Source of the DNA: a virus
Reading direction: 5' to 3' (one strand)
Virus record (IMG/VR): IMGVR_UViG_3300045988_177924
Length of the DNA stretch: 64,000 nucleotides
The notes beneath the pieces are model-generated. The model saw nothing but the letters and a program-made list of their open reading frames with translations. It did no database searches and was not told the DNA's origin. The position numbers and the translations under genes are program-made. The stretch's first letter is position 1. Each line of letters opens with the position of its first letter. Positions 28,344-41,820 of the stretch are shown in pieces.

Positions 28344-28490
28344 AATGATTCTCCTTTCTATGCCATTAGTCTTCGATTAGCAAGATTTTTATTTTACGAA
28401 GATGATGCCATTATGAACACCATGAGCGCCACCCTCCTAAGAGGGCAACGGACTTGCACCGTTCACGCTTTCGCGCGGGCCTTGCGGTGA
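28344..28490 (-). ncRNA. conserved structured 5' leader, copy E1
   Basis: minus-strand blocks UAAUCACCGCAAGGCCCGC, ACGG-UGCAAGU-CCGU, GGCGCUCAUGGUG and GGCAUAGAAAGGAGAA are shared with E2; intervening hairpins differ in sequence but not in shape. Confidence 0.45.
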
Positions 28491-28982
28491 TTAACTCTCG
28501 TAAGATTCGAGAGCGTCCTCCAAATAATCAGTTCTTGCTCTTTCGAGCAAGAGTGATTTGGTAAGGGCATTCTTTTTGCCCTTGGTTGCTTTGAGCTCAT
28601 CTTCGGTGAGCGATGCGACAACTGTCGCTTGCGGCGTGAGTAAGACACCTTTCTTATAATCAATATAAGTTTCGGTGTCGATTTCGCTCTCGGCAGAGGT
28701 TACAATCTCATCAACGTTGTAGCCTTTAGTTAGAAGCATGAAACAAGAGGTCATCATGCTTTTTGCCTTATCGCTGTCGCCGGCGCAAACATCGATGCAA
28801 ATCTGCGCGAAGTGCACAGCAGCTTGCTTGTCGGCCTCGCCGTTGTAGCAGAATTTTTCTTTGCTGCCATCGGGAAACTCGATTGTTTCGATGCCGAGGT
28901 TGATATTCCCATCTGCTTTCATTGCGTCGAGGGCGTTGATGATGTTGGGGGTTGATACAGTTTGATTGATTTTAATTGACAT
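28491..28982 (-). CDS. hypothetical protein (163 aa)
   Basis: SD TAGGAGGA. Confidence 0.6.
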   Translation of the reverse strand: MSIKINQTVSTPNIINALDAMKADGNINLGIETIEFPDGSKEKFCYNGEADKQAAVHFAQICIDVCAGDSDKAKSMMTSCFMLLTKGYNVDEIVTSAESEIDTETYIDYKKGVLLTPQATVVASLTEDELKATKGKKNALTKSLLLERARTDYLEDALESYES

Positions 28983-30560: not shown

Positions 30561-30706
30561 AACGGTTTCTCCTTTCCCTGCCATGGGACCCCTAGCAATA
30601 ATAAAGTTTTTCGGGGACGGTGTCGTTATGCCCACCATAAGCGCCGCGTATTTCTACGCATCGGACTTGCACCGATCACCTCCGAGGGGGCGGGCCTTGC
30701 GGTGAT
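30561..30706 (-). ncRNA. conserved structured 5' leader, copy E2
   Basis: see E1; AUCGG-UGCAAGU-CCGAU hairpin co-varies with E1 AACGG/CCGUU. Confidence 0.45.
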
Positions 30707-30949
30707 TTATTTTAGTATTTCGCCGAAATTGTCGGTGACAAGTTGTTTGGCGACATCCGTCAAGTGGTGGATACACTTGCTGTAAGTCTCCGTTTTGCCT
30801 TCGACTTTAGCCCTGTATTCGGGCGTTATGGCGAAGGAAATTTTGGTGGCATTGGACATTTCTTTATCGAGTTGGGTGTTTACCCATATGACAAAATCGT
30901 TGACAAAGCCAACGATTGCCGCGATTTGGTCGGCGGTATAATTTTTCAT
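30707..30949 (-). CDS. hypothetical protein (80 aa)
   Basis: SD AAAGGAGG before ATG 30949. Confidence 0.55.
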   Translation of the reverse strand: MKNYTADQIAAIVGFVNDFVIWVNTQLDKEMSNATKISFAITPEYRAKVEGKTETYSKCIHHLTDVAKQLVTDNFGEILK

Positions 30950-31391: not shown

Positions 31392-31761
31392 AGTGTTTCT
31401 CCTTTCCTGGCTAGGGAACCCGATTCGCCATTGTTTAGTTTTGTTTTACGGGTTGCCGAACTATGAACGGCAATGCTGATGGTTTCGGCTCATGCCGTCA
31501 TCAGGCCACGGACTTTTACCGTGACGACCATCTGTCCCGAGCAAGGGTTTAAGCTTACTCGGGACATTGTGTGATTTTTACATATTTTACCTCCCCACCC
31601 CCGCTTGGGTGTATTGTATTTCACGGCTCCTTAATAAGAGAATTGTTCCCACTCACTCGCTTGTGAGCAGTTGAATAAACGTTCCTCTTCCCCTTCGGAG
31701 GGGTAACCTATCTCTCTTAAAGCGGTAAGAGAGCAATTGTGGGACTATATCCCACGACAAC
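31392..31761 (-). ncRNA. conserved structured 5' leader, extended copy E3
   Basis: 3' half aligns with E1/E2 (AAUCACACAAUG, CACGG-UAAAAGU-CCGUG, UUCAUAGU, CCAGGAAAGGAGAA); 5' half adds four more clean hairpins. Confidence 0.45.
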
Positions 31762-32178: not shown

Positions 32179-32343
32179 TTATTCTTGTGTCAAAGACACA
32201 ATTTTTACAGCGCTGTGGCCGCAAGCCCGCAGTTGTTGCGCGGTTTCTTCAGCACTCTTTCGAGTGATGAAAAAGTTGTTAAAGACCTGCACGGTCTTTG
32301 ACCTGTCGCCGTAAGCGACGTAGTGTATAATCCAAATCTTCAT
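32179..32343 (-). CDS. hypothetical protein (54 aa)
   Basis: SD AAAGGAGGA before ATG 32343; below the ORF-track cut-off. Confidence 0.45.
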   Translation of the reverse strand: MKIWIIHYVAYGDRSKTVQVFNNFFITRKSAEETAQQLRACGHSAVKIVSLTQE

Positions 32344-32357
32344 TAGATTGTCCTCCT

Positions 32358-32657
32358 TTATTTGATGTATTCAGTAAGAACGACGGTGATTTCGCCGTCG
32401 TGTTCGTCTTCATCTTCACAGAAGTAACTGGCAGTTACTCCTTTGATTTTATTGAGGGATTGCGCGACTAACTCAGAGTTATAGAACCAAATGTTGGCAG
32501 GATTTTTGCTTTCAAGCGCCGCTTGAAATACTTCAAAATCCGTAATGTGCATTACGGGTTTCCCAAATGTTTTATATTGCATTTGGATTTTGTTATAGAG
32601 GATATCAGCGATTGTGTCGTTGATAAGCACGGGGTTGTTGTTTTGATTATTTAGCAT
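32358..32657 (-). CDS. hypothetical protein (99 aa)
   Basis: weak SD GGGAAAAGG; first ORF after the long structured region. Confidence 0.55.
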   Translation of the reverse strand: MLNNQNNNPVLINDTIADILYNKIQMQYKTFGKPVMHITDFEVFQAALESKNPANIWFYNSELVAQSLNKIKGVTASYFCEDEDEHDGEITVVLTEYIK

Positions 32658-33499
32658 AAGTTTGCCTTTTCCCTTATCCCTGGGAGCTAGGAGTTATTTT
32701 TGTGCTTTCAGTTCATCTTTCGATGATGCAGAGCCACGACGAGCACGTAAGCACTTGGCTCCATTACTTCTATCCCTTAGACAGTCCTCTCATCCTTGCT
32801 CTTTCTGGTGAGCCCCCTGTCATTTCCGCACCAGGTTTTGCACCCTGGCACGTTTCGGGATATCGGCAATCAGGCTTGCCGCGATTTAGGTTTTGTGCCC
32901 TCTTTGTAAGTGGGACACACGCAGTTGTCTCTGCGCCTGGGGTTGGTTTAACTCCCAGATATACCAATATCAAGTCGTTGCTTGACTCGGAGTGTGCTTA
33001 ACGTAGACTCCTCTACAGGTTAGTTTGTTATTATGTGCAGTCCAACACACCTGAATGTCGTGTTGGGCTTCCAACTTGGTGTGAAAACACACCAACGCTA
33101 ACAAGTACGGCTTTCCCTTTAGCTCCATACTTGTTACGGGAACTGATGAATTTTTCGTTGGCTAGACTACTTACCTCGTTTAAGGTCCCTTCATCTGGGT
33201 TGCTACACTTATTGACGCCAGTGGCAGGCGTATGTTGTTCCCCCGAAAGGAAACATGGGAGTTCCTTGTGGATGGTAAGATTTCATCCCTCTCAAGGGCC
33301 AATCGAGAAGGCCACAAGGAACCATTTATTCCATTCCTGAGAATGGAGTGGGGTGATTAACCCCAACGTGTCAAGTTGTACCGCGAGCGTACTGACTTGA
33401 CACGGAAATTATTTTTTTCGATTGTTGACGGCAGAGCGTCATATTTCCAATCAAAGCTCCTTTTCATCACAGTCTTCACCGTATAAAAAGGCAAGCTAA
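32658..33499 (-). ncRNA. about 0.85 kb ORF-free, G+C-rich, helix-dense region: candidate large structured RNA or long leader
   Basis: no credible ORF; many 5-12-bp helices with G-U pairs only on the minus strand; follows two terminators and a weak promoter. Confidence 0.45.
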
Positions 33500-33505
33500 A
33501 AGTGA

Positions 33506-33534
33506 AATTTACACTTTTTGGAAAGTATTTTCAA
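33506..33534 (-). promoter_or_regulatory. possible promoter TTGAAA-17-TAAATT (reverse strand)
   Basis: TTGAAA at 33534-33529, TAAATT at 33511-33506; weaker than the other promoters. Confidence 0.3.
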
Positions 33535-33602
33535 TCGAAAATACAATTTCAGGACAAAAATATTCATAAACCCATTTTCCCGCCCCAACCCAATTTCCCC
33601 AT

Positions 33603-33634
33603 AAAAAAAAGGCGCCGACATCCGTAGTCAGCGC
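33603..33634 (-). terminator. rho-independent terminator (second of a tandem pair)
   Basis: GCGCUGAC-UACGGAU-GUCGGCGC(C) then U8 on the minus strand. Confidence 0.75.
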
Positions 33635-33654
33635 TCATCTCACCTCACACACAT

Positions 33655-33684
33655 AAAAAAAAGAGGAGCCAGGCACTCCTCTTC
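33655..33684 (-). terminator. rho-independent terminator (first of a tandem pair)
   Basis: AGAGGAG-UGCCUGG-CUCCUCU then U8 on the minus strand, 5 nt after the stop of 33689-33994. Confidence 0.8.
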
Positions 33685-33688
33685 TTAA

Positions 33689-33994
33689 TCAAAACCAGAA
33701 AAAGTCATTCAAGACATCGAACATCGACGGCATCGAACTCTTCCCATTATAACTTATATGGAAAGAGCCGTAGTCCTTGACGAACTCTTTCAGCAACTTT
33801 TGTGCTTCGGCCTCAGCCTCTCGCGCCTTTTTAAAGGCGTCGACGACAGCCTTCGACCTCGTCTCGCGTTCGTTTTTAAGAGCCAGCTGTTTCTCTTCTT
33901 CGGCTTTCTTTTTTGCGACAATAGCCTCTTCGGCTTTTTCGCACTCTTCTTTTGTTTCATAGACCTTGTCGGTCATCTCACTGTAATACTTCAT
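33689..33994 (-). CDS. hypothetical K/E-rich coiled-coil protein (101 aa)
   Basis: SD AAAGGAG. Confidence 0.6.
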   Translation of the reverse strand: MKYYSEMTDKVYETKEECEKAEEAIVAKKKAEEEKQLALKNERETRSKAVVDAFKKAREAEAEAQKLLKEFVKDYGSFHISYNGKSSMPSMFDVLNDFFWF

Positions 33995-34573: not shown

Positions 34574-35836
34574 TTAATCTTGACTGTTAATGATATTTTG
34601 ACTTATATATAAGCAACTTCTTCTCGCTGAGATTCTGTTACAGTTTGATAATTTTGGTGTCTTATAGCCTCTCGGCATATAACTAAAATCTATCTGATTA
34701 TTAAATATGTCCATAAGTATAGCAAATCCAGAACTCATCTTTCCTTTGATGAAATACTCTTTTCCAAAGTATTTGACCTTATCAAATTTTCTAAATCCTT
34801 GAATCTTACCTACAGGGATTTTTTGTTCTCCACGAACGCCCCTAGTTAATTGATAATTTCCTTTGGATACTCTTCGCTTTTGATAGATAGTGTCATTGAG
34901 CGTGAACTCTTTACCACCGGAAGAGATGACACAAGCATCTATGAAATGGTCTTTTGGTAGATGGAGACTTTCACGATTCGTCTTAGTAACAAATCCAAAA
35001 GTCTCAATAGCGTCAGGATAGACCTTAAGCAACCGACTTCTGATGATACTCATGTGAGTTGCATACTTTAAATTCATCTTTTTAGGTTTTTTGTTTAGTG
35101 CAATTTTCCCACTATGGACTCCGGTGTGGCAATCTTCACATAAGGTTATGAGATTGCTCTCATCATCTGTTCCACTTTGACTTTTAAAGACGATGTGATG
35201 AACCTCTAATCTGGTATGTTTCTTACCGCAAATCTGGCAGGTATAACCATCACGATTAAGTATGGCTTCTCGTCTACTGGCCCATTCATAGTTAAAACCC
35301 TTTTGATACCCCCAGTGTTTGACCTTCTCCAAAATCAAACTTGGATTTTTCATCAGATGTGTATCAAACTGACTGACTTCAAGTACAATCTTTGAAATTG
35401 GGAGTATCTTTTTGCAGAACTCGATTTCATCAATGTGTGCTTGTACCTTGTGCTTGACGGAAGGTGGAAGCCTGTTTAATTTGGTAGAGTTATTACGGTT
35501 GAGGAATCTTGACTCACGATAACGAGTCTTTCTGTTGCGTCTATTCCTACGAGCCTGTCTCCTACTATCCATCTTCGACTTGATATCGTCTCGAAGTTTT
35601 ACATTTGACTGATACAAAACTTTGTTATTGCCAACACAAGCAGTACCAATATATTTTGAGCCTGTATCTTGTCCTAAGACAACGTCTTGTGTATACTCAG
35701 TGGAGTCATAAGTAAGTTGAATTGTAAATGGACATCTCTTTTTGACTTTAGCTTTGCCATCTTTGAGAAGCAATCTTGCGACCACATTCTCGCATGGCAT
35801 TAGCGGTTTCCCACTTTTTGAAATTACATAAACCAT
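34574..35836 (-). CDS. iscB: IscB, OMEGA-family RNA-guided nuclease (RuvC split by HNH) (420 aa)
   Basis: PLMP (SGKPLMPC); RuvC-I VLGQDTGSKYIG; Arg-rich bridge helix RRQARRNRRNRKTRYR; RuvC-II IVLEVSQFD; HNH CQICG..LEVHHIVFKSQSGTDDESNLITLCEDCH; RuvC-III KDHFIDACVI; SD AAGGAGA. Confidence 0.85.
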   Translation of the reverse strand: MVYVISKSGKPLMPCENVVARLLLKDGKAKVKKRCPFTIQLTYDSTEYTQDVVLGQDTGSKYIGTACVGNNKVLYQSNVKLRDDIKSKMDSRRQARRNRRNRKTRYRESRFLNRNNSTKLNRLPPSVKHKVQAHIDEIEFCKKILPISKIVLEVSQFDTHLMKNPSLILEKVKHWGYQKGFNYEWASRREAILNRDGYTCQICGKKHTRLEVHHIVFKSQSGTDDESNLITLCEDCHTGVHSGKIALNKKPKKMNLKYATHMSIIRSRLLKVYPDAIETFGFVTKTNRESLHLPKDHFIDACVISSGGKEFTLNDTIYQKRRVSKGNYQLTRGVRGEQKIPVGKIQGFRKFDKVKYFGKEYFIKGKMSSGFAILMDIFNNQIDFSYMPRGYKTPKLSNCNRISARRSCLYISQNIINSQD

Positions 35837-36161
35837 AAATAAGTCTCCTTAAAATTCTCACTCTTAATGAGTGGTAACGCCTATCTTAACTCTGTTACCA
35901 AGTTAAGAATTGGTCTTCCTTTCGTCAATGTTAATTAGGCTTTTGCGACATACACACAGGGCTTTTCTTACTCCAACCCAACTTAATGTATATCGACAGA
36001 GCGACGGTCTAAGGCGACAACCGAAGGTGTCATGACCTAACTAACGTAGCTCTCATTTCTGAGGCTGAGACTTGTGAACTATTTAATGGAAGCCTACGAG
36101 TTTTTAGCTCATAGGTGGCTCACTAGGATTATTACATCACTTTACTCCTTTATATCTTATA
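35837..36161 (-). ncRNA. candidate omega RNA (HEARO-type) of IscB, including the 5' guide region
   Basis: 325 nt ORF-free stretch between a consensus promoter and the iscB ATG; helices CCUAUGAG/CUCGUAGG, CUCA-GAAA-UGAG, CUUAAC/GUUAAG interleaved with GGUAAC/GUUACC, CACUC/GAGUG. Confidence 0.6.
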
Positions 36162-37906: not shown

Positions 37907-39548
37907 GTGCCTAATTTACAAAACCTATATCAAGTTTTTAAACTTAAATCTAGTTTTATTGTAGAGAACAACTTAAATATAGTTAATTATTCAAAATCTA
38001 AGGCAGCTCGCGATGGAGCGCTGGTATCAATTGGTGATAATCTGGTTTTTCAACAAATCAGAAAATATTATAATGATACCAGAAGTCATCGAGAGATTTT
38101 TAACGATGTCCAACAATTTCGTCGCGCTATAAGAGCCGCGAAGAGAGAGGGACGAACTAAGGAAGCTGGTATTCTTAATCGGTTTTTGACAGATGCGTTG
38201 TTTGTTAAAGATATTATTAACGTTGAAGTCGTGACCAAGAAAGAATATAAAGAATTGGCCAAGAATGGTTTTGACGTTAACGGTATTCATTATGTGAGAT
38301 TTTGTTGTGGTTCGGGACAAATGAGGCGCAACACTATTACCTTTATTAACGAAGCTCTTTATGACACCTTGTACAAAAACCTGATGTGCGGGTTGGACAC
38401 CAAGATTTCAGAAATGAATTTGGCGAAATATCATGCGTATTTTGCGTTGGCGTTTTCAAGTGTTATGTGGGTGCGAACTCCGAGGGTATGCGTAGTTAAG
38501 GATTTCTTTAATGTGGTGAAGGATCAATCGGTTGATTGGATTTGCCCCAATCCCGAGACTGGGAAAAAACAGATTAAAGAAAGAATAATGGATATCGAGT
38601 TAAACTGCGCTGATGGACAGGGGTTGATAGATCCTAAGTTTGCGGCGCTGTGGGCAGAAGATATGAATTTATCATATACGCCGTCGTCGTTCGTTGTCCG
38701 TAGCGTTTTTGTGAAGGGGTGCTTGGTTCCATTTGATTTTCGAGAATTTGGAGCTGTACACGGTATTGACTCAATTCGTGACCGGTGGGGAATCTCGCAT
38801 AGGTTAGAGGATATTGATGTTATATTGAGTGAATCTCAATTCAAGATGTATAAATATTATGTATCTTGGTATGAATATCAAAAGTATGTAGATGCGGCTG
38901 GTATTCAGTGGGGAGTTGCGAGATATAATAAAAAGTACGATGACGAATATGTGCTGGCTAATTATCAATATCTGCAAGTGTTGGATATCAATAAGGATGA
39001 TATTCTGGAATTGATTCAACCGACGATTGATTGGATTAAAAAGATTTGTTCAGGTGACCAATTGTATACAATGCTGTATATGTTGGGTTGCAAGGGCGAA
39101 CAGGTCAGTTTTAAAGAGCTGTACAATGGAGCGCAAAGCACGGCGTTGAGGGCTATTATTAAAAACCCGATAATGTTGGAAGACGCTCATGTACAGAAGA
39201 AAATATATCGCAATATTGCTGAGACGATAAACAAGGCGAAGATTGGTAAGATATGGGTGAGAGGAAATTATAGTTTTATGATTTCCGATCCCGTGGCACA
39301 GTGCCAATCGGCGCTTGGGTTGGAACCGGTGGGGTTAATTGGGCCTGACCAAGTGTATTCAAATTTCTGGAGGCAGCGAAGTGTGGGTTGTGTTGACCTG
39401 TGCCGCAGCCCGATGATTGACTCGCACGAACACAACCCTTGTAAAGTAGTATCGTCCGAAGATATGGATTATTGGTATCAATATATTAAGAGTGGAATCA
39501 TTTATAGTATATATGATACTTCAACATTACGACACTCCGATAGTGACT
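37907..39548 (+). CDS. YonO/RdRP-like single-subunit RNA polymerase, exon 1 (spliced product about 957 aa)
   Basis: GTG start with SD AGAGGAAG; ADGQGLID (RdRP-family DGxGxI), CRSPMIDSHEHNPCKVV; ends ..HSDSD then one nt of the next codon. Confidence 0.55.
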
Positions 39549-40588
39549 TAACATAATGGGTCCGTCGGATGGTAACATTCGATTGCTACTCAGTGAACCT
39601 GGCAATCCAGGGTGTGGGATAAAATCCTGCTAACAGTAAAAATCGTAAGTTTTGTTGGTCGGCCTGGAGAGAAATGCCGACAGAAGAAAAAGAATTCTAT
39701 GTCTATGAATGGATAAACAAAGACACGGGAGAGATTTTCTACGTAGGGAAAGGTAGTGGTTATCGTTGGAAACGTAAAACCGCCAGCTCTCGAAACAGAT
39801 ATTTCAATCGTTATGTCCAAAAATATCCAAATTGTGAACCTCGAAAAGTTTATGAAAATTTAACTGAAGAAGAGGCTTACAACAAAGAGCGAGAATTAAT
39901 AGCCGAATATAAAGCACAAGGCGTTCAGCTGGTTAACTTCGACGAAGGAGGACGACGAGGTGGACGCTCACCTGGAAAGCTAAATGGTATGTATGGGAAA
40001 ACACATACACCAGAAGCTCGAAAGAAAATAAGCGAAGCCAATTCCGATGGCCACAATGCGGGAATCAACAATACTCAATATGGAATTAGTCCAAGAGAGC
40101 GTATGAGTCCTGCGATATACGAGCAGTGGCGTACGGCACACAAGAAAGTAGTTGGTGCAGCAAATCCAAATTGCCATCATACAATTTTGTTTAATCTTGA
40201 ACATGAGATTGTGAAAGAGTTTGAATATACGATTGAATGTGCGCATTTTTTGGAAGAGCAAGAGCATTTAACTAATGGAATTGAGAATATTCGCTCGCAA
40301 ATCAAATATTACAGCAATACAGGACACGTTATGTTCAATAAGTATTATGTAAAAGTGATTCGGCCAACAAAACAAGACAATACTGTGCCAAGCCTCGTGA
40401 AAGAGGAAGGTTAAACGACTACCGAAAGCATATCAAGCGAGAAAAACGTTTGAAAAGAAGCAAGTAGGGTAGAGAACGGTGCAAATCCGGTTCTCGAAGT
40501 GCTGAGGGAACTATGAACGGTAAAAGAACATAGCTCTAAGAGATAGTCTACTCCCCTAATAAATATCGGGAAACCGAGGGTATAAAGG
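39549..40588 (+). mobile_element. group I intron (1040 nt) carrying a GIY-YIG homing endonuclease ORF
   Basis: P1 exon GACU paired with intron GGUC, with U.G at the splice site; core AACUAU/AUAGU(C)U (P7) inside R/S-like elements GGGAACUAUGAACGG and AAGAGAUAGUCUAC; terminal G at 40588; splicing restores the frame. Confidence 0.75.
39674..40414 (+). CDS. GIY-YIG homing endonuclease with NUMOD3-like repeats (246 aa)
   Basis: FYVYEWINKDTGEIFYVGKGSGYR ... NKERELI (GIY-YIG module); GMYGKTHTPEARKKISEA (NUMOD3-like). Confidence 0.8.
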   Translation: MPTEEKEFYVYEWINKDTGEIFYVGKGSGYRWKRKTASSRNRYFNRYVQKYPNCEPRKVYENLTEEEAYNKERELIAEYKAQGVQLVNFDEGGRRGGRSPGKLNGMYGKTHTPEARKKISEANSDGHNAGINNTQYGISPRERMSPAIYEQWRTAHKKVVGAANPNCHHTILFNLEHEIVKEFEYTIECAHFLEEQEHLTNGIENIRSQIKYYSNTGHVMFNKYYVKVIRPTKQDNTVPSLVKEEG

Positions 40589-41820
40589 TTGACGGAGATG
40601 TAGTAATGTCCACGGATAATAAAATCTTTATCAAGGGTGCGCAAAAATGGCACAATGTCATCACATATGAGAAAGGTGCGGTGCCGGTTCAGAAGATTTG
40701 TTTAAAGAATTCAATCGCGACCGATATTCGCGGCTTGGGAACTGGGGTTGGAGGTTTTTCTAACTGCGCAACAATAATGCACGCAATGAAGGGAATTTTC
40801 CAAAAAGACACCCAAAAAGAACAAAGAGACGAACTCACTTTGCGTATTAAATTACTTCGAGAAATTGTTGGTCAAGAAATTGATAGAATTAAAGGAACAG
40901 CCGCGCCGGAGCTGCCAAAAGAGTGGAAAAAATTCATCCGAATTAATGATGATGACACTGATGCGGTTAAGGCTGATAAATATAAAAGAAATTCGATGGT
41001 TATTTCTAAAAAACCCTATTTCTTTAGATATTTATATCCAGAGCTAAACCAACAGTTCAAGCAATACGAAAACAGTTACAATATGGCGTCCAAAAACATG
41101 TTTGGTATTAAATTTAAAAAGCTTTTAACCAAACCTAATAAGTCAGAAGACGAGATGAATTTGGTACGCCGTTATCAAAAGTATTCGCCGCTAATCACCG
41201 CACCGTGCATAATGAATATATTGTGTAAGGAATTTGAAAATGTCGATTTTGATATTAATTTCAATAAAAACGCGGTAAGTATGTTGCCTACCTTTGAGGA
41301 TTGTTTTGAATTTGATCAAGAACGGTTTGCTATTGTTAAAGATTTGTATCGCAAATATACAGCGCGTAAACAAGTAAAAACCTTGGAGAGTATTGTTGAT
41401 AATATTGATTTACCGAATCGTGACGAATATGATGAGATTAGATTCGGGGCAATGACATTTATCAGAACGGAAATTCAAGAGGCGATTGAGTCTGCGTCGT
41501 TCAGTGGCAAAGAATTGCTTTACTACTGCCATTGTTTATCAAAAGAATACAAACAGTTTAATTGGGATTTTGCTTGGGACATTTTAGACGAAAGCGTGTT
41601 GGATTTAATCCCTCGTGGAATTGTTCAGATTCCCGTAAAAAATGAGACTGGATTTGAATACCTTGGTAATCGATACACTTTACAAGTAATTCACGAAGAT
41701 CGCGTCAGCGAGTTGTGTGATGATGACGATTGGAATCAAACGGCGTGGGAAGAAATTTTGGGGCAAGATTTAGATTTTGACTTCGATGCTGATAACTTAT
41801 TTGGAGGCGATGACGTATGA
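40589..41820 (+). CDS. YonO/RdRP-like RNA polymerase, exon 2
   Basis: reading frame open from 40589 (tt gac gga gat ..); junction gives SDFDGDVVMSTDNK. Confidence 0.55.

Follow-up and report, generated by a model that had tools for sequence, protein, structure and literature searches.

A large structured RNA, very probably of a family outside Rfam, in a variable slot of SPbeta-like human-gut phages

What is encoded in a long stretch of a phage operon that carries no credible open reading frame (ORF)? The question is raised by positions 32658–33534 of the window analysed here, a stretch of 64,000 nucleotides (nt) from the IMG/VR virus record IMGVR_UViG_3300045988_177924, in which this G+C-rich region lies within a leftward (minus-strand) operon. 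An earlier note, made from the sequence by eye, had read it as a large ornate RNA or a very long regulatory leader on the minus strand. This reading is borne out by compensatory changes between homologs, by insertions and deletions (indels) of the size of single hairpins, by the lack of codon periodicity and by a bias towards G-U pairs on the minus strand. The element is a discrete cassette of about 800 nt at 32699–33497 (minus strand), delimited by the end-to-end match of a family profile (33500–32687), by comparison of related loci with and without the RNA, by the fold and by covariation. It very probably represents a conserved family of large structured RNA outside Rfam, and the best explanation overall, which we consider probable, is that it is a new-family structured RNA acting as an autonomous folded RNA during infection.

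The first point to be settled is whether the region is a gene. Its G+C content is 47.3% within the RNA and 40.4% in the whole window, and the local counts given earlier (34 of 60 in 32821–32880 and 23 of 60 in 32401–32460) are exact. The longest ORF on the RNA strand has 67 amino acids (aa), the two plus-strand ORFs of about 100 aa have no match in Pfam or PHROG, and no other ORF of the region has one. The idea of a decayed protein gene, or of a small protein whose coding sequence happens to form helices, is very improbable. It draws on stop-free runs of 83–142 codons on the RNA strand of some homologs and on the spurious ORFs that gene callers placed here; these ORFs, however, are not conserved in frame, and copies that are 91–95% identical already differ by 1-nt indels. 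Only about one third of the indels between pairs of homologs are divisible by three, substitutions are spread evenly over the three codon positions with no bias to the third, no protein family is matched, and the paired positions covary. The frame-breaking indels and the absence of codon periodicity therefore indicate a structured RNA and not a gene or pseudogene, and the coding hypothesis was rejected on these grounds together with the lack of a Pfam or PHROG match. A protein frame shared by the homologs, which the note had named among the observations that would overturn its proposal, was not found.

The minimum free energy of the minus strand is −300 kcal/mol, against −242 ± 7.6 kcal/mol for dinucleotide shuffles (z = −7.7). 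Since the plus strand folds as well (z = −8.6), the functional strand is not identifiable from energy alone. It can be told from the pairs themselves. Read on the minus strand, the structure of the window sequence contains 9 G-U pairs and no A-C pair, and the aligned rows of type A (one of two sequence types described below) contain 74 G-U and 12 A-C; the minus strand is therefore the RNA strand. The same argument had been made by eye from G-U pairs in several helices, and one G-U pair is indeed present inside the 12-bp helix cited for it. That the functional transcript is instead the plus strand, antisense to the operon, is hardly credible: its equal fold energy speaks for it, and against it stand the excess of G-U over A-C in conserved helices and the position of the promoter, the terminators and all flanking genes on the minus strand. 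As predicted from sequence, the RNA would be read in the direction of the leftward operon.

Sixteen distinct, full-length homologs of 700–1,110 nt were collected by three search routes, using the conserved upstream gene, an invariant 23-mer of the RNA, and the spurious gene-caller ORFs inside it. They come from IMG/VR or human-gut metagenome contigs of phages of 125–146 kb, plus one short contig. The latter, the sole find from the genome collection, belongs to a metagenome-assembled genome binned as ‘Treponema sp.’ and carries the same phage genes. IMG/VR yielded three homolog contigs, and further pattern scans for distant relatives returned the same three. A blastn search (word size 11) with a 1.1 kb query against 50,697 phage records gave no match; because an invariant 35-nt block would have seeded one, the RNA is absent from these sequenced isolates. 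An nhmmer profile run over all fetched loci (denoted by L numbers) revealed no weak or partial copies in loci lacking the RNA. Two loci with a long gap after the 101-aa upstream gene, L052 and L063, had been taken as positive and were dropped, since the profile matches neither; the gap in L052 is filled by ordinary small genes. An identical sequence of the 101-aa protein is recorded in 959 blocks of the assembly collection; the RNA is present in 3 of the 10 distinct contexts listed for it, one of these being identical to the window. So far the RNA appears, from the sequences at hand, to be confined to some members of one clade of 125–146 kb SPbeta-like human-gut phages with a YonO-type RNA polymerase.

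The polymerase gene of the present phage lies on the plus strand at 37907–39556. Its 549-aa product is related to YonO, the single-subunit RNA polymerase of Bacillus phage SPbeta, and the Pfam family listed for the corresponding gene is RdRP. The nearest cultured relatives are SPbeta-like Bacillus phages, Clostridium phages (c-st) and Enterocloster phages, and the relationships of the polymerase therefore place the phage among the SPbeta-like phages of gut Firmicutes. The relatives in Enterocloster and Clostridium phages point to a probable host among the Clostridia.

About 25 helices were derived from folds of the individual sequences together with alignments. In the predicted architecture, a variable domain of hairpins at the 5′ end is followed by a highly conserved central core, which contains a three-way junction and a pseudoknot, then by exchangeable hairpins at the periphery, and finally by a 3′ domain that a long-range helix closes. 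The 5′ domain (33330–33448; all elements of the RNA are on the minus strand) contains helices a1 (33448–33443/33409–33404) and a2, the long hairpin b (33403–33395/33376–33368) and hairpins c and d. Conservation is highest in the core (33140–33323), with the three-way junction formed by e, e1 and e2, the hairpins f, g, h and i, and a nearly invariant strand, AAGUAGUCUAGCCAACGAAAAAUUCAUCAGU; compensatory changes are found at one position each in helices g, h and i and at the top of e. Three peripheral hairpins follow (33040–33137): j (33136–33125/33110–33099), k (33095–33076) and l (33068–33060/33048–33040). The 3′ domain (32713–32986) comprises n, o, a p-q module (32936–32895), r (32881–32864), s, t and u. 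Helix s (32862–32857/32776–32771) is a long-range helix around the conserved loop AGAAAGAGCAA (32806–32796), and it covaries at most positions. The four helices singled out by eye in the earlier note are all real and kept in the homologs, where they correspond to j (33099–33110/33125–33136), e (33261–33271/33312–33322), b (33368–33376/33395–33403) and k (33076–33095).

Comparison of the homologs shows that the RNA is built from exchangeable parts. There are two sequence types, A and B, which share a nearly invariant central core and bear unrelated peripheral hairpins at equivalent positions. In the 5′ domain the hairpin positions are common to both types and the sequences differ, with c and d missing in L003, L071 and L073; at the sites of j, k and l, type B has hairpins of unrelated sequence. 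Several of the newly found copies, among them L057 and L072, are A/B mosaics, and in L004/L021 the 3′ end is swapped outright. L003, the nearest of the full-length relatives, has 85% identity at the positions that align and differs by indels of 14, 33, 37, 24, 15, 23, 16 and 40 nt, each of which is one hairpin gained or lost. In L022–L024, hairpin k is duplicated, and an extra p-q module (GYGYRG-AGAAAA-CYRCGY followed by GUGUC..AAAGAG.., at L022:6761–6784, L023:13383–13406 and L024:942–965) sits within the conserved AAAGAGCAA loop; modules therefore duplicate within the RNA.

Covariation was assessed with plain MAFFT alignments that were not fitted to the structure, and with a structure derived from the window sequence. 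In the alignment of 10 sequences, pairing is found in 82.5% of the cells, compared with 40–47% when the partners are slid by 1–3 columns, and 33 pairs have changed on both sides, compared with 4–13. With all 16 sequences, and 156 pairs in 28 helix segments, the corresponding values are 87.4% against 39–46%, and 29 pairs against 8–13. In both tests none of 500 shuffles reached the observed fraction of paired cells, the number of both-side changes or the covariation score. The count of further pair types is not above that of the shuffles, which reached it in 500 of 500 and 498 of 500 cases. An independent RNAalifold consensus has 78 pairs, of which 29 show compensatory changes, and a hand-curated helix table of 132 pairs, itself biased towards pairing, gives 97.6% canonical pairs and 61 double changes. 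A brute-force search of column pairs for helices was too noisy and was not used. The covariation that the note had asked to see in collected homologs is thus present in the 16 sequences.

Two long-range contacts stand out. The first is a pseudoknot between UUGGC in the loop of hairpin e1 (33298–33302) and GCCAA within the invariant strand (33158–33162). It is paired in 100% of the 16 sequences, and its last pair is C-G in 11 of them and U-A in the other 5 (UUGGU:ACCAA). The second is a candidate kissing loop between UCAGG in the loop of hairpin l (33050–33054) and CCUGA in the loop of hairpin r (32870–32874). The two loops are complementary in all 15 sequences evaluated (of the 16). In L010/L026, CCUGA:UCAGG has become CCUGU:ACAGG, inside a perfect match of 8 nt (AACCUGUC:GACAGGUU). 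The identical switch is seen in L057, where it is carried by a type A hairpin l and so represents an independent event. This candidate loop–loop contact would tie the 3′ domain to the centre of the RNA. In ROOL, the cryo-electron microscopy (cryo-EM) structure of the nanocage revealed that a ‘pseudoknot’ predicted from covariation is in fact a kissing loop between molecules (PMC12286853); by analogy, both contacts described here could form either within one molecule or between copies.

Two other pairings were considered and discarded. Pairing of the h loop (GAUGAA) with UUCAUC at 33150–33145 is mismatched in L010/L026 and never covaries, and a long-range helix GUAGU:ACUGC shows one-sided changes only.

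The limits of the RNA can be read from closely related loci. L010, which carries the RNA, and L011/L012, which lack it, are near-identical up to the −10 box of the promoter, and identity resumes about 10 nt ahead of the ribosome-binding site of a 54-aa gene that all three share. Between those limits lies the RNA in L010 and a 75-nt AU-rich leader in L011/L012; the RNA is therefore the entire 5′ leader. In the window, a sigma-70-like promoter (TTGAAA-17 nt-TAAATT) is recognised by its consensus at 33506–33534 on the minus strand, and the stretch up to its −10 box is kept whether or not a locus carries the RNA. Because 33534–33506 is a promoter, conserved also in relatives that lack the RNA, the RNA begins near 33497; the predicted transcription start is near 33497–33499. 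At the other end, the last nucleotides before the first downstream gene (32661–32698, CUCCUAGCUCCCAGGGAUAAGGGAAAAGG) form a generic pre-gene leader with a weak ribosome-binding site, repeated before other genes and outside the RNA family. The range 32658–33534 proposed earlier therefore stands as an ORF-free structured stretch, and not as the extent of the RNA, since 33534–33506 is promoter and the last ~40 nt (32698–32661) are generic leader.

The cassette nature of the element extends to its neighbours. Wherever a contig reaches, the upstream 143-aa and 101-aa genes are constant, and the first downstream gene varies (the 99-aa gene, a small ORF, the 54-aa gene and others). We found no protein partner specific to the RNA; the flanking 143-, 101-, 54- and 99-aa genes also occur in phages without it. 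The same slot in L005 (4418–5380), L007 (4430–5392), L037–L044 and L064–L067 holds a gene for a 320-aa polynucleotide kinase; its kinase domain, at the N-terminus, is matched by two RNA-repair enzymes, the Pnkp kinase of Clostridium thermocellum and Pnkp1 of Capnocytophaga. In other siblings the slot holds a D12 (Dam-like) methylase with a 118–120-aa gene. In L002 it contains small ORFs with a pistol ribozyme and then an HD-domain protein that lies further downstream in the RNA-carrying relatives. A more distant relative, L013, encodes a 101-aa protein of 55% identity; the segment 614–3778, directly upstream of the gene for it, contains a full ROOL, a DUF3800-XI RNA and about ten tRNA genes. 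On circumstantial grounds, the locus looks like a hot spot for accessory cargo that leans towards RNA metabolism and counter-defence.

That the element is present in some relatives and absent, with sharp limits, from others is also what would be expected of a large ribozyme or a mobile-RNA remnant (for example a group I or II intron without an ORF, or a new RNA that cleaves or processes itself) inserted behind the promoter. The strongly conserved core and a neighbourhood with HEARO/IscB, twister-sister and pistol elements fit this explanation as well. It is nonetheless quite improbable: Rfam models for group I and II introns gave no match at permissive thresholds in the window region or in five homolog loci, and models for self-cleaving ribozymes (twister-sister, pistol, twister, hammerhead, hatchet) gave none inside 32699–33497. 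Moreover, the cassette replaces an unrelated 75-nt leader and interrupts no conserved ‘exon’, and neither an intron-encoded protein nor a domain V-like hairpin nor a target-site duplication was seen.

The main alternative, which we still consider unlikely, is that of a giant cis-acting 5′ leader. Here the RNA would stay on the operon messenger RNA and control the whole operon, possibly by protecting the 5′ end from RNase J-type decay, by modifying the polymerase for antitermination, or by setting the timing of expression. The RNA fills exactly the 5′ untranslated region (UTR), beginning at the start site and stopping about 10 nt short of the ribosome-binding site, is followed by no terminator, and opens with a 5′-terminal hairpin in types A and B; in addition, the operon is full of RNA-processing elements (twister-sister here, pistol and twister-like ribozymes in relatives). 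However, in relatives, equivalent operons are expressed from the same promoter with an AU-rich leader of 75 nt in place of the RNA, and the downstream genes vary among homologs. The roughly 25 conserved helices, the pseudoknot and the covarying loop–loop contact exceed the needs of known stabilisers or antitermination RNAs. No conserved pairing with the ribosome-binding site and no terminator/antiterminator switch is seen. When the homologs were examined as a cis-regulatory leader or riboswitch would require, the location in the 5′ UTR was found, and a constant downstream gene or a terminator-like site at the 3′ end was not.

We therefore return to an RNA that acts through its own fold, which is favoured because its architecture goes far beyond that of known leaders, because it is dispensable in sibling phages and because it is not tied to one downstream gene. 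Under this proposal the promoter at 33534–33506 would drive the RNA, the transcript would start near 33497, and the RNA would act by means of its fold during infection, as GOLLD and ROOL do. It might assemble from RNA alone, the two covarying long-range contacts being made within one molecule or between copies, or it might alternatively serve as a scaffold for host or phage factors; it would not be the regulator of one particular gene. As to the narrower question of autonomous or trans-acting function as opposed to action in cis, the sequence evidence leaves the chances about even. The role is most likely an accessory one, in host takeover, RNA metabolism or counter-defence, because the slot of siblings holds an RNA-repair polynucleotide kinase or a Dam-like methylase.

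Several points weigh against this proposal. The argument from one slot with different cargo is circumstantial. The 3′ end of the RNA has no terminator or recognisable processing site, and the RNA is therefore made as the 5′ part of a messenger RNA, which is where cis-acting leaders sit. The promoter and start site were recognised solely by consensus, and the phage also encodes its own YonO-type polymerase. The homologs come from one phage clade and include many recombinant mosaics; because the sequences are related and often recombinant, there are fewer independent compensatory events than the cell counts suggest. Finally, because the window sequence supplied the structure that was tested, the paired percentage is inflated in comparison with the slid controls.

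A bolder version, offered as a long shot, would make the RNA a third, unrelated family of giant phage RNA that self-assembles as RNA only. UUGGC:GCCAA and CCUGA:UCAGG would then be intermolecular bridges, and the whole would be a counter-defence or RNA-metabolism device interchangeable with the kinase and methylase cassettes; a new large ribozyme is included in the same estimate.

To our knowledge, non-coding RNAs of bacteria or phages that combine a length above 500 nt with a conserved, elaborate architecture are very few; they are the rRNAs, group II introns, GOLLD, ROOL and OLE. Each known giant RNA has revealed unexpected biology or structure, the latest being RNA-only nanocages. The RNA described here would add a new large-RNA family, carried by a widespread human-gut phage. 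Near-isogenic phages with the RNA, a 75-nt leader, an RNA-repair kinase or a methylase in one slot offer a natural comparison, which makes the question of what a giant phage RNA is for more tractable. Mutagenesis and cryo-EM have concrete targets in the pseudoknot and the kissing loop, both of which covary. The interest is tempered by the narrow phylogenetic range.

The immediate surroundings of the RNA are organised as follows, all on the minus strand. Upstream lies the gene for the 101-aa protein (33689–33994), and its transcription unit is closed by an intrinsic-terminator-like hairpin at 33658–33686 that is conserved in all related loci. A second such hairpin at 33612–33634 completes the tandem pair; the two terminators that had been noticed by eye are thus recovered at 33686–33658 and 33634–33612. 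Between them and the promoter, at about 33600–33571, there is a G-rich tract, GGGGAAAUUGGGUUGGGGCGGGAAAAUGGG, which is conserved in relatives and could form a G-quadruplex. Downstream, the first gene (32358–32657, start at 32657) encodes 99 aa without a family match, is not the same gene across homologs, and is predicted to be co-transcribed with the structured RNA.

The generic leader preceding this gene recurs on the minus strand at 31421–31390 and 30591–30560, in two copies in L003, and also in loci without the RNA. Its pattern (..CCYWRGC.AGGRAAAGGAG..) precedes several genes and borders variable cassettes, and it may be a recombination linker for module shuffling. The sharing of 3′-end blocks with other leaders, claimed earlier, holds for the block CUAGCUCCCAGGG..., which is this generic leader. 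It does not hold for CCAGG-GUGCAAAA-CCUGG, which has just GGUGCAA in common with twister-sister ribozymes and is a hairpin restricted to type A copies.

Further RNA elements occur along the leftward operon and in its relatives. A HEARO/omega RNA (35910–36123, minus strand, 94.6 bits) lies directly upstream of a 420-aa IscB-like gene (34574–35836, minus strand) with RRXRR and HNH domains; together they are an RNA-guided nuclease element that heads the operon. Most siblings have no HEARO/IscB and an N6/N4 methylase in its stead. Twister-sister ribozymes are located between small genes at 28413–28492 and 30628–30707 (both minus strand), and ribozymes including pistol and sub-threshold twister-P1 are found in relatives (L002:1787–1853, L006:4865–4925, L010:5803–5855, L023:11333–11385), which suggests that ribozymes process the polycistronic messenger RNA of the operon. 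A second ORF-free, G+C-rich stretch of 370 nt (31392–31761, minus strand; z = −5.3) has no Rfam match at E ≤ 1. It consists of two modules (query positions 228–288 and 290–370) both of which recur in many related loci at 83–100% identity, in some of them several times over. Within it, at about 31531–31474 (minus strand), the sequence GAUGGUC-GUCACGG..CCGUGGC-CUGAUGA-CGGCAUGAGCCG-AAAC-CAUC reads like a type III hammerhead (GUC site, CUGAUGA, GAAA), a candidate identified by eye in which G12 is ambiguous and for which Rfam makes no call.

Outside the operon, the segment 36250–36700 has a G+C content of 14–15% and separates the leftward operon from the rightward operon of the polymerase gene; a control region for divergent transcription or an origin of replication may lie here. 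On the plus strand, 53 nt at about 40538–40590 are 100% identical to sequence within terminase or endonuclease genes of phages of Enterococcus, Staphylococcus and Listeria whose DNA is otherwise unrelated; the stretch may be an intron or a site associated with a homing endonuclease.

How, then, does the RNA relate to the known families? Rfam 15 was searched at the gathering threshold with the whole window, at E ≤ 10 with 32300–33800, and at E ≤ 1 with five homolog loci, and in none of these searches did a model match the structured RNA. In the whole window Rfam recognises three elements, the HEARO RNA and the two twister-sister ribozymes, all outside this RNA. For GOLLD (RF01998) there were no matches at any threshold tried in the window or the five loci, and neither the RNA of the window nor those loci reached the ROOL (RF03087) threshold of 99.1 bits; in the same search a genuine ROOL at L013:3182–3778 scored 275 bits. 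ARAGORN found no tRNA gene in the 64-kb window, and none was found in the five homolog loci scanned. Searches of the literature brought up no account of such an RNA.

Among the structured RNAs compared, the HEARO or IscB omega RNA (RF02033) is encoded by the same phage on the same strand, 2.4 kb upstream. It differs in being 214 nt long and paired with an IscB gene, whereas the present RNA has no HEARO match and no associated nuclease gene. The cis-acting leader RNAs of phages and Firmicutes (HK022 put, EAR, 5′ stabiliser stem-loops), which are tens to ~120 nt long and have one to a few hairpins, resemble it in that they follow a promoter directly and form the 5′ end of the transcript of an operon; in contrast, the RNA described here has ~800 nt and ~25 helices, and sibling phages dispense with it in the operon. 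In a survey of IMG/VR, Fremin et al. (2023) reported 8,495 candidate structured RNAs of 29–151 nt (PMC10690425). The present RNA is set apart from these by description, as no unit of ~800 nt is described there, and individual hairpins of it could be among them.

The closest comparison is with ROOL and GOLLD. With ROOL the RNA shares the character of a large, many-helix RNA of Firmicutes phages and prophages, with pseudoknots and few invariant nucleotides. ROOL, however, has ~580 nt compared with ~800 nt here, and in L013 it lies upstream of the 101-aa gene, whereas the present RNA lies downstream of that gene as a 5′ leader. With GOLLD the RNA shares a length of ~800 nt, its encoding by phages, and a modular build with variable parts; in GOLLD the 3′ half is conserved and the 5′ half variable, whereas here the most conserved part is central (33323–33140). 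Adjacency to tRNA genes, which is typical of ROOL and GOLLD and not obligatory, is absent here. RNA-only homo-oligomeric assembly has been shown for GOLLD, ROOL and OLE. The likeness to GOLLD and ROOL that had been suggested by eye is thus apt as a description and does not extend to membership, given no match to either Rfam model against 275 bits for the ROOL control. With ~800 nt, a structure that is paired in 87% of the alignment cells, no coding signal, many helices, junctions, a covarying pseudoknot and a covarying loop–loop contact, the RNA has the features of a large ornate non-coding RNA of more than 500 nt; it is neither GOLLD nor ROOL, and it is very probably a new family of the same descriptive class.

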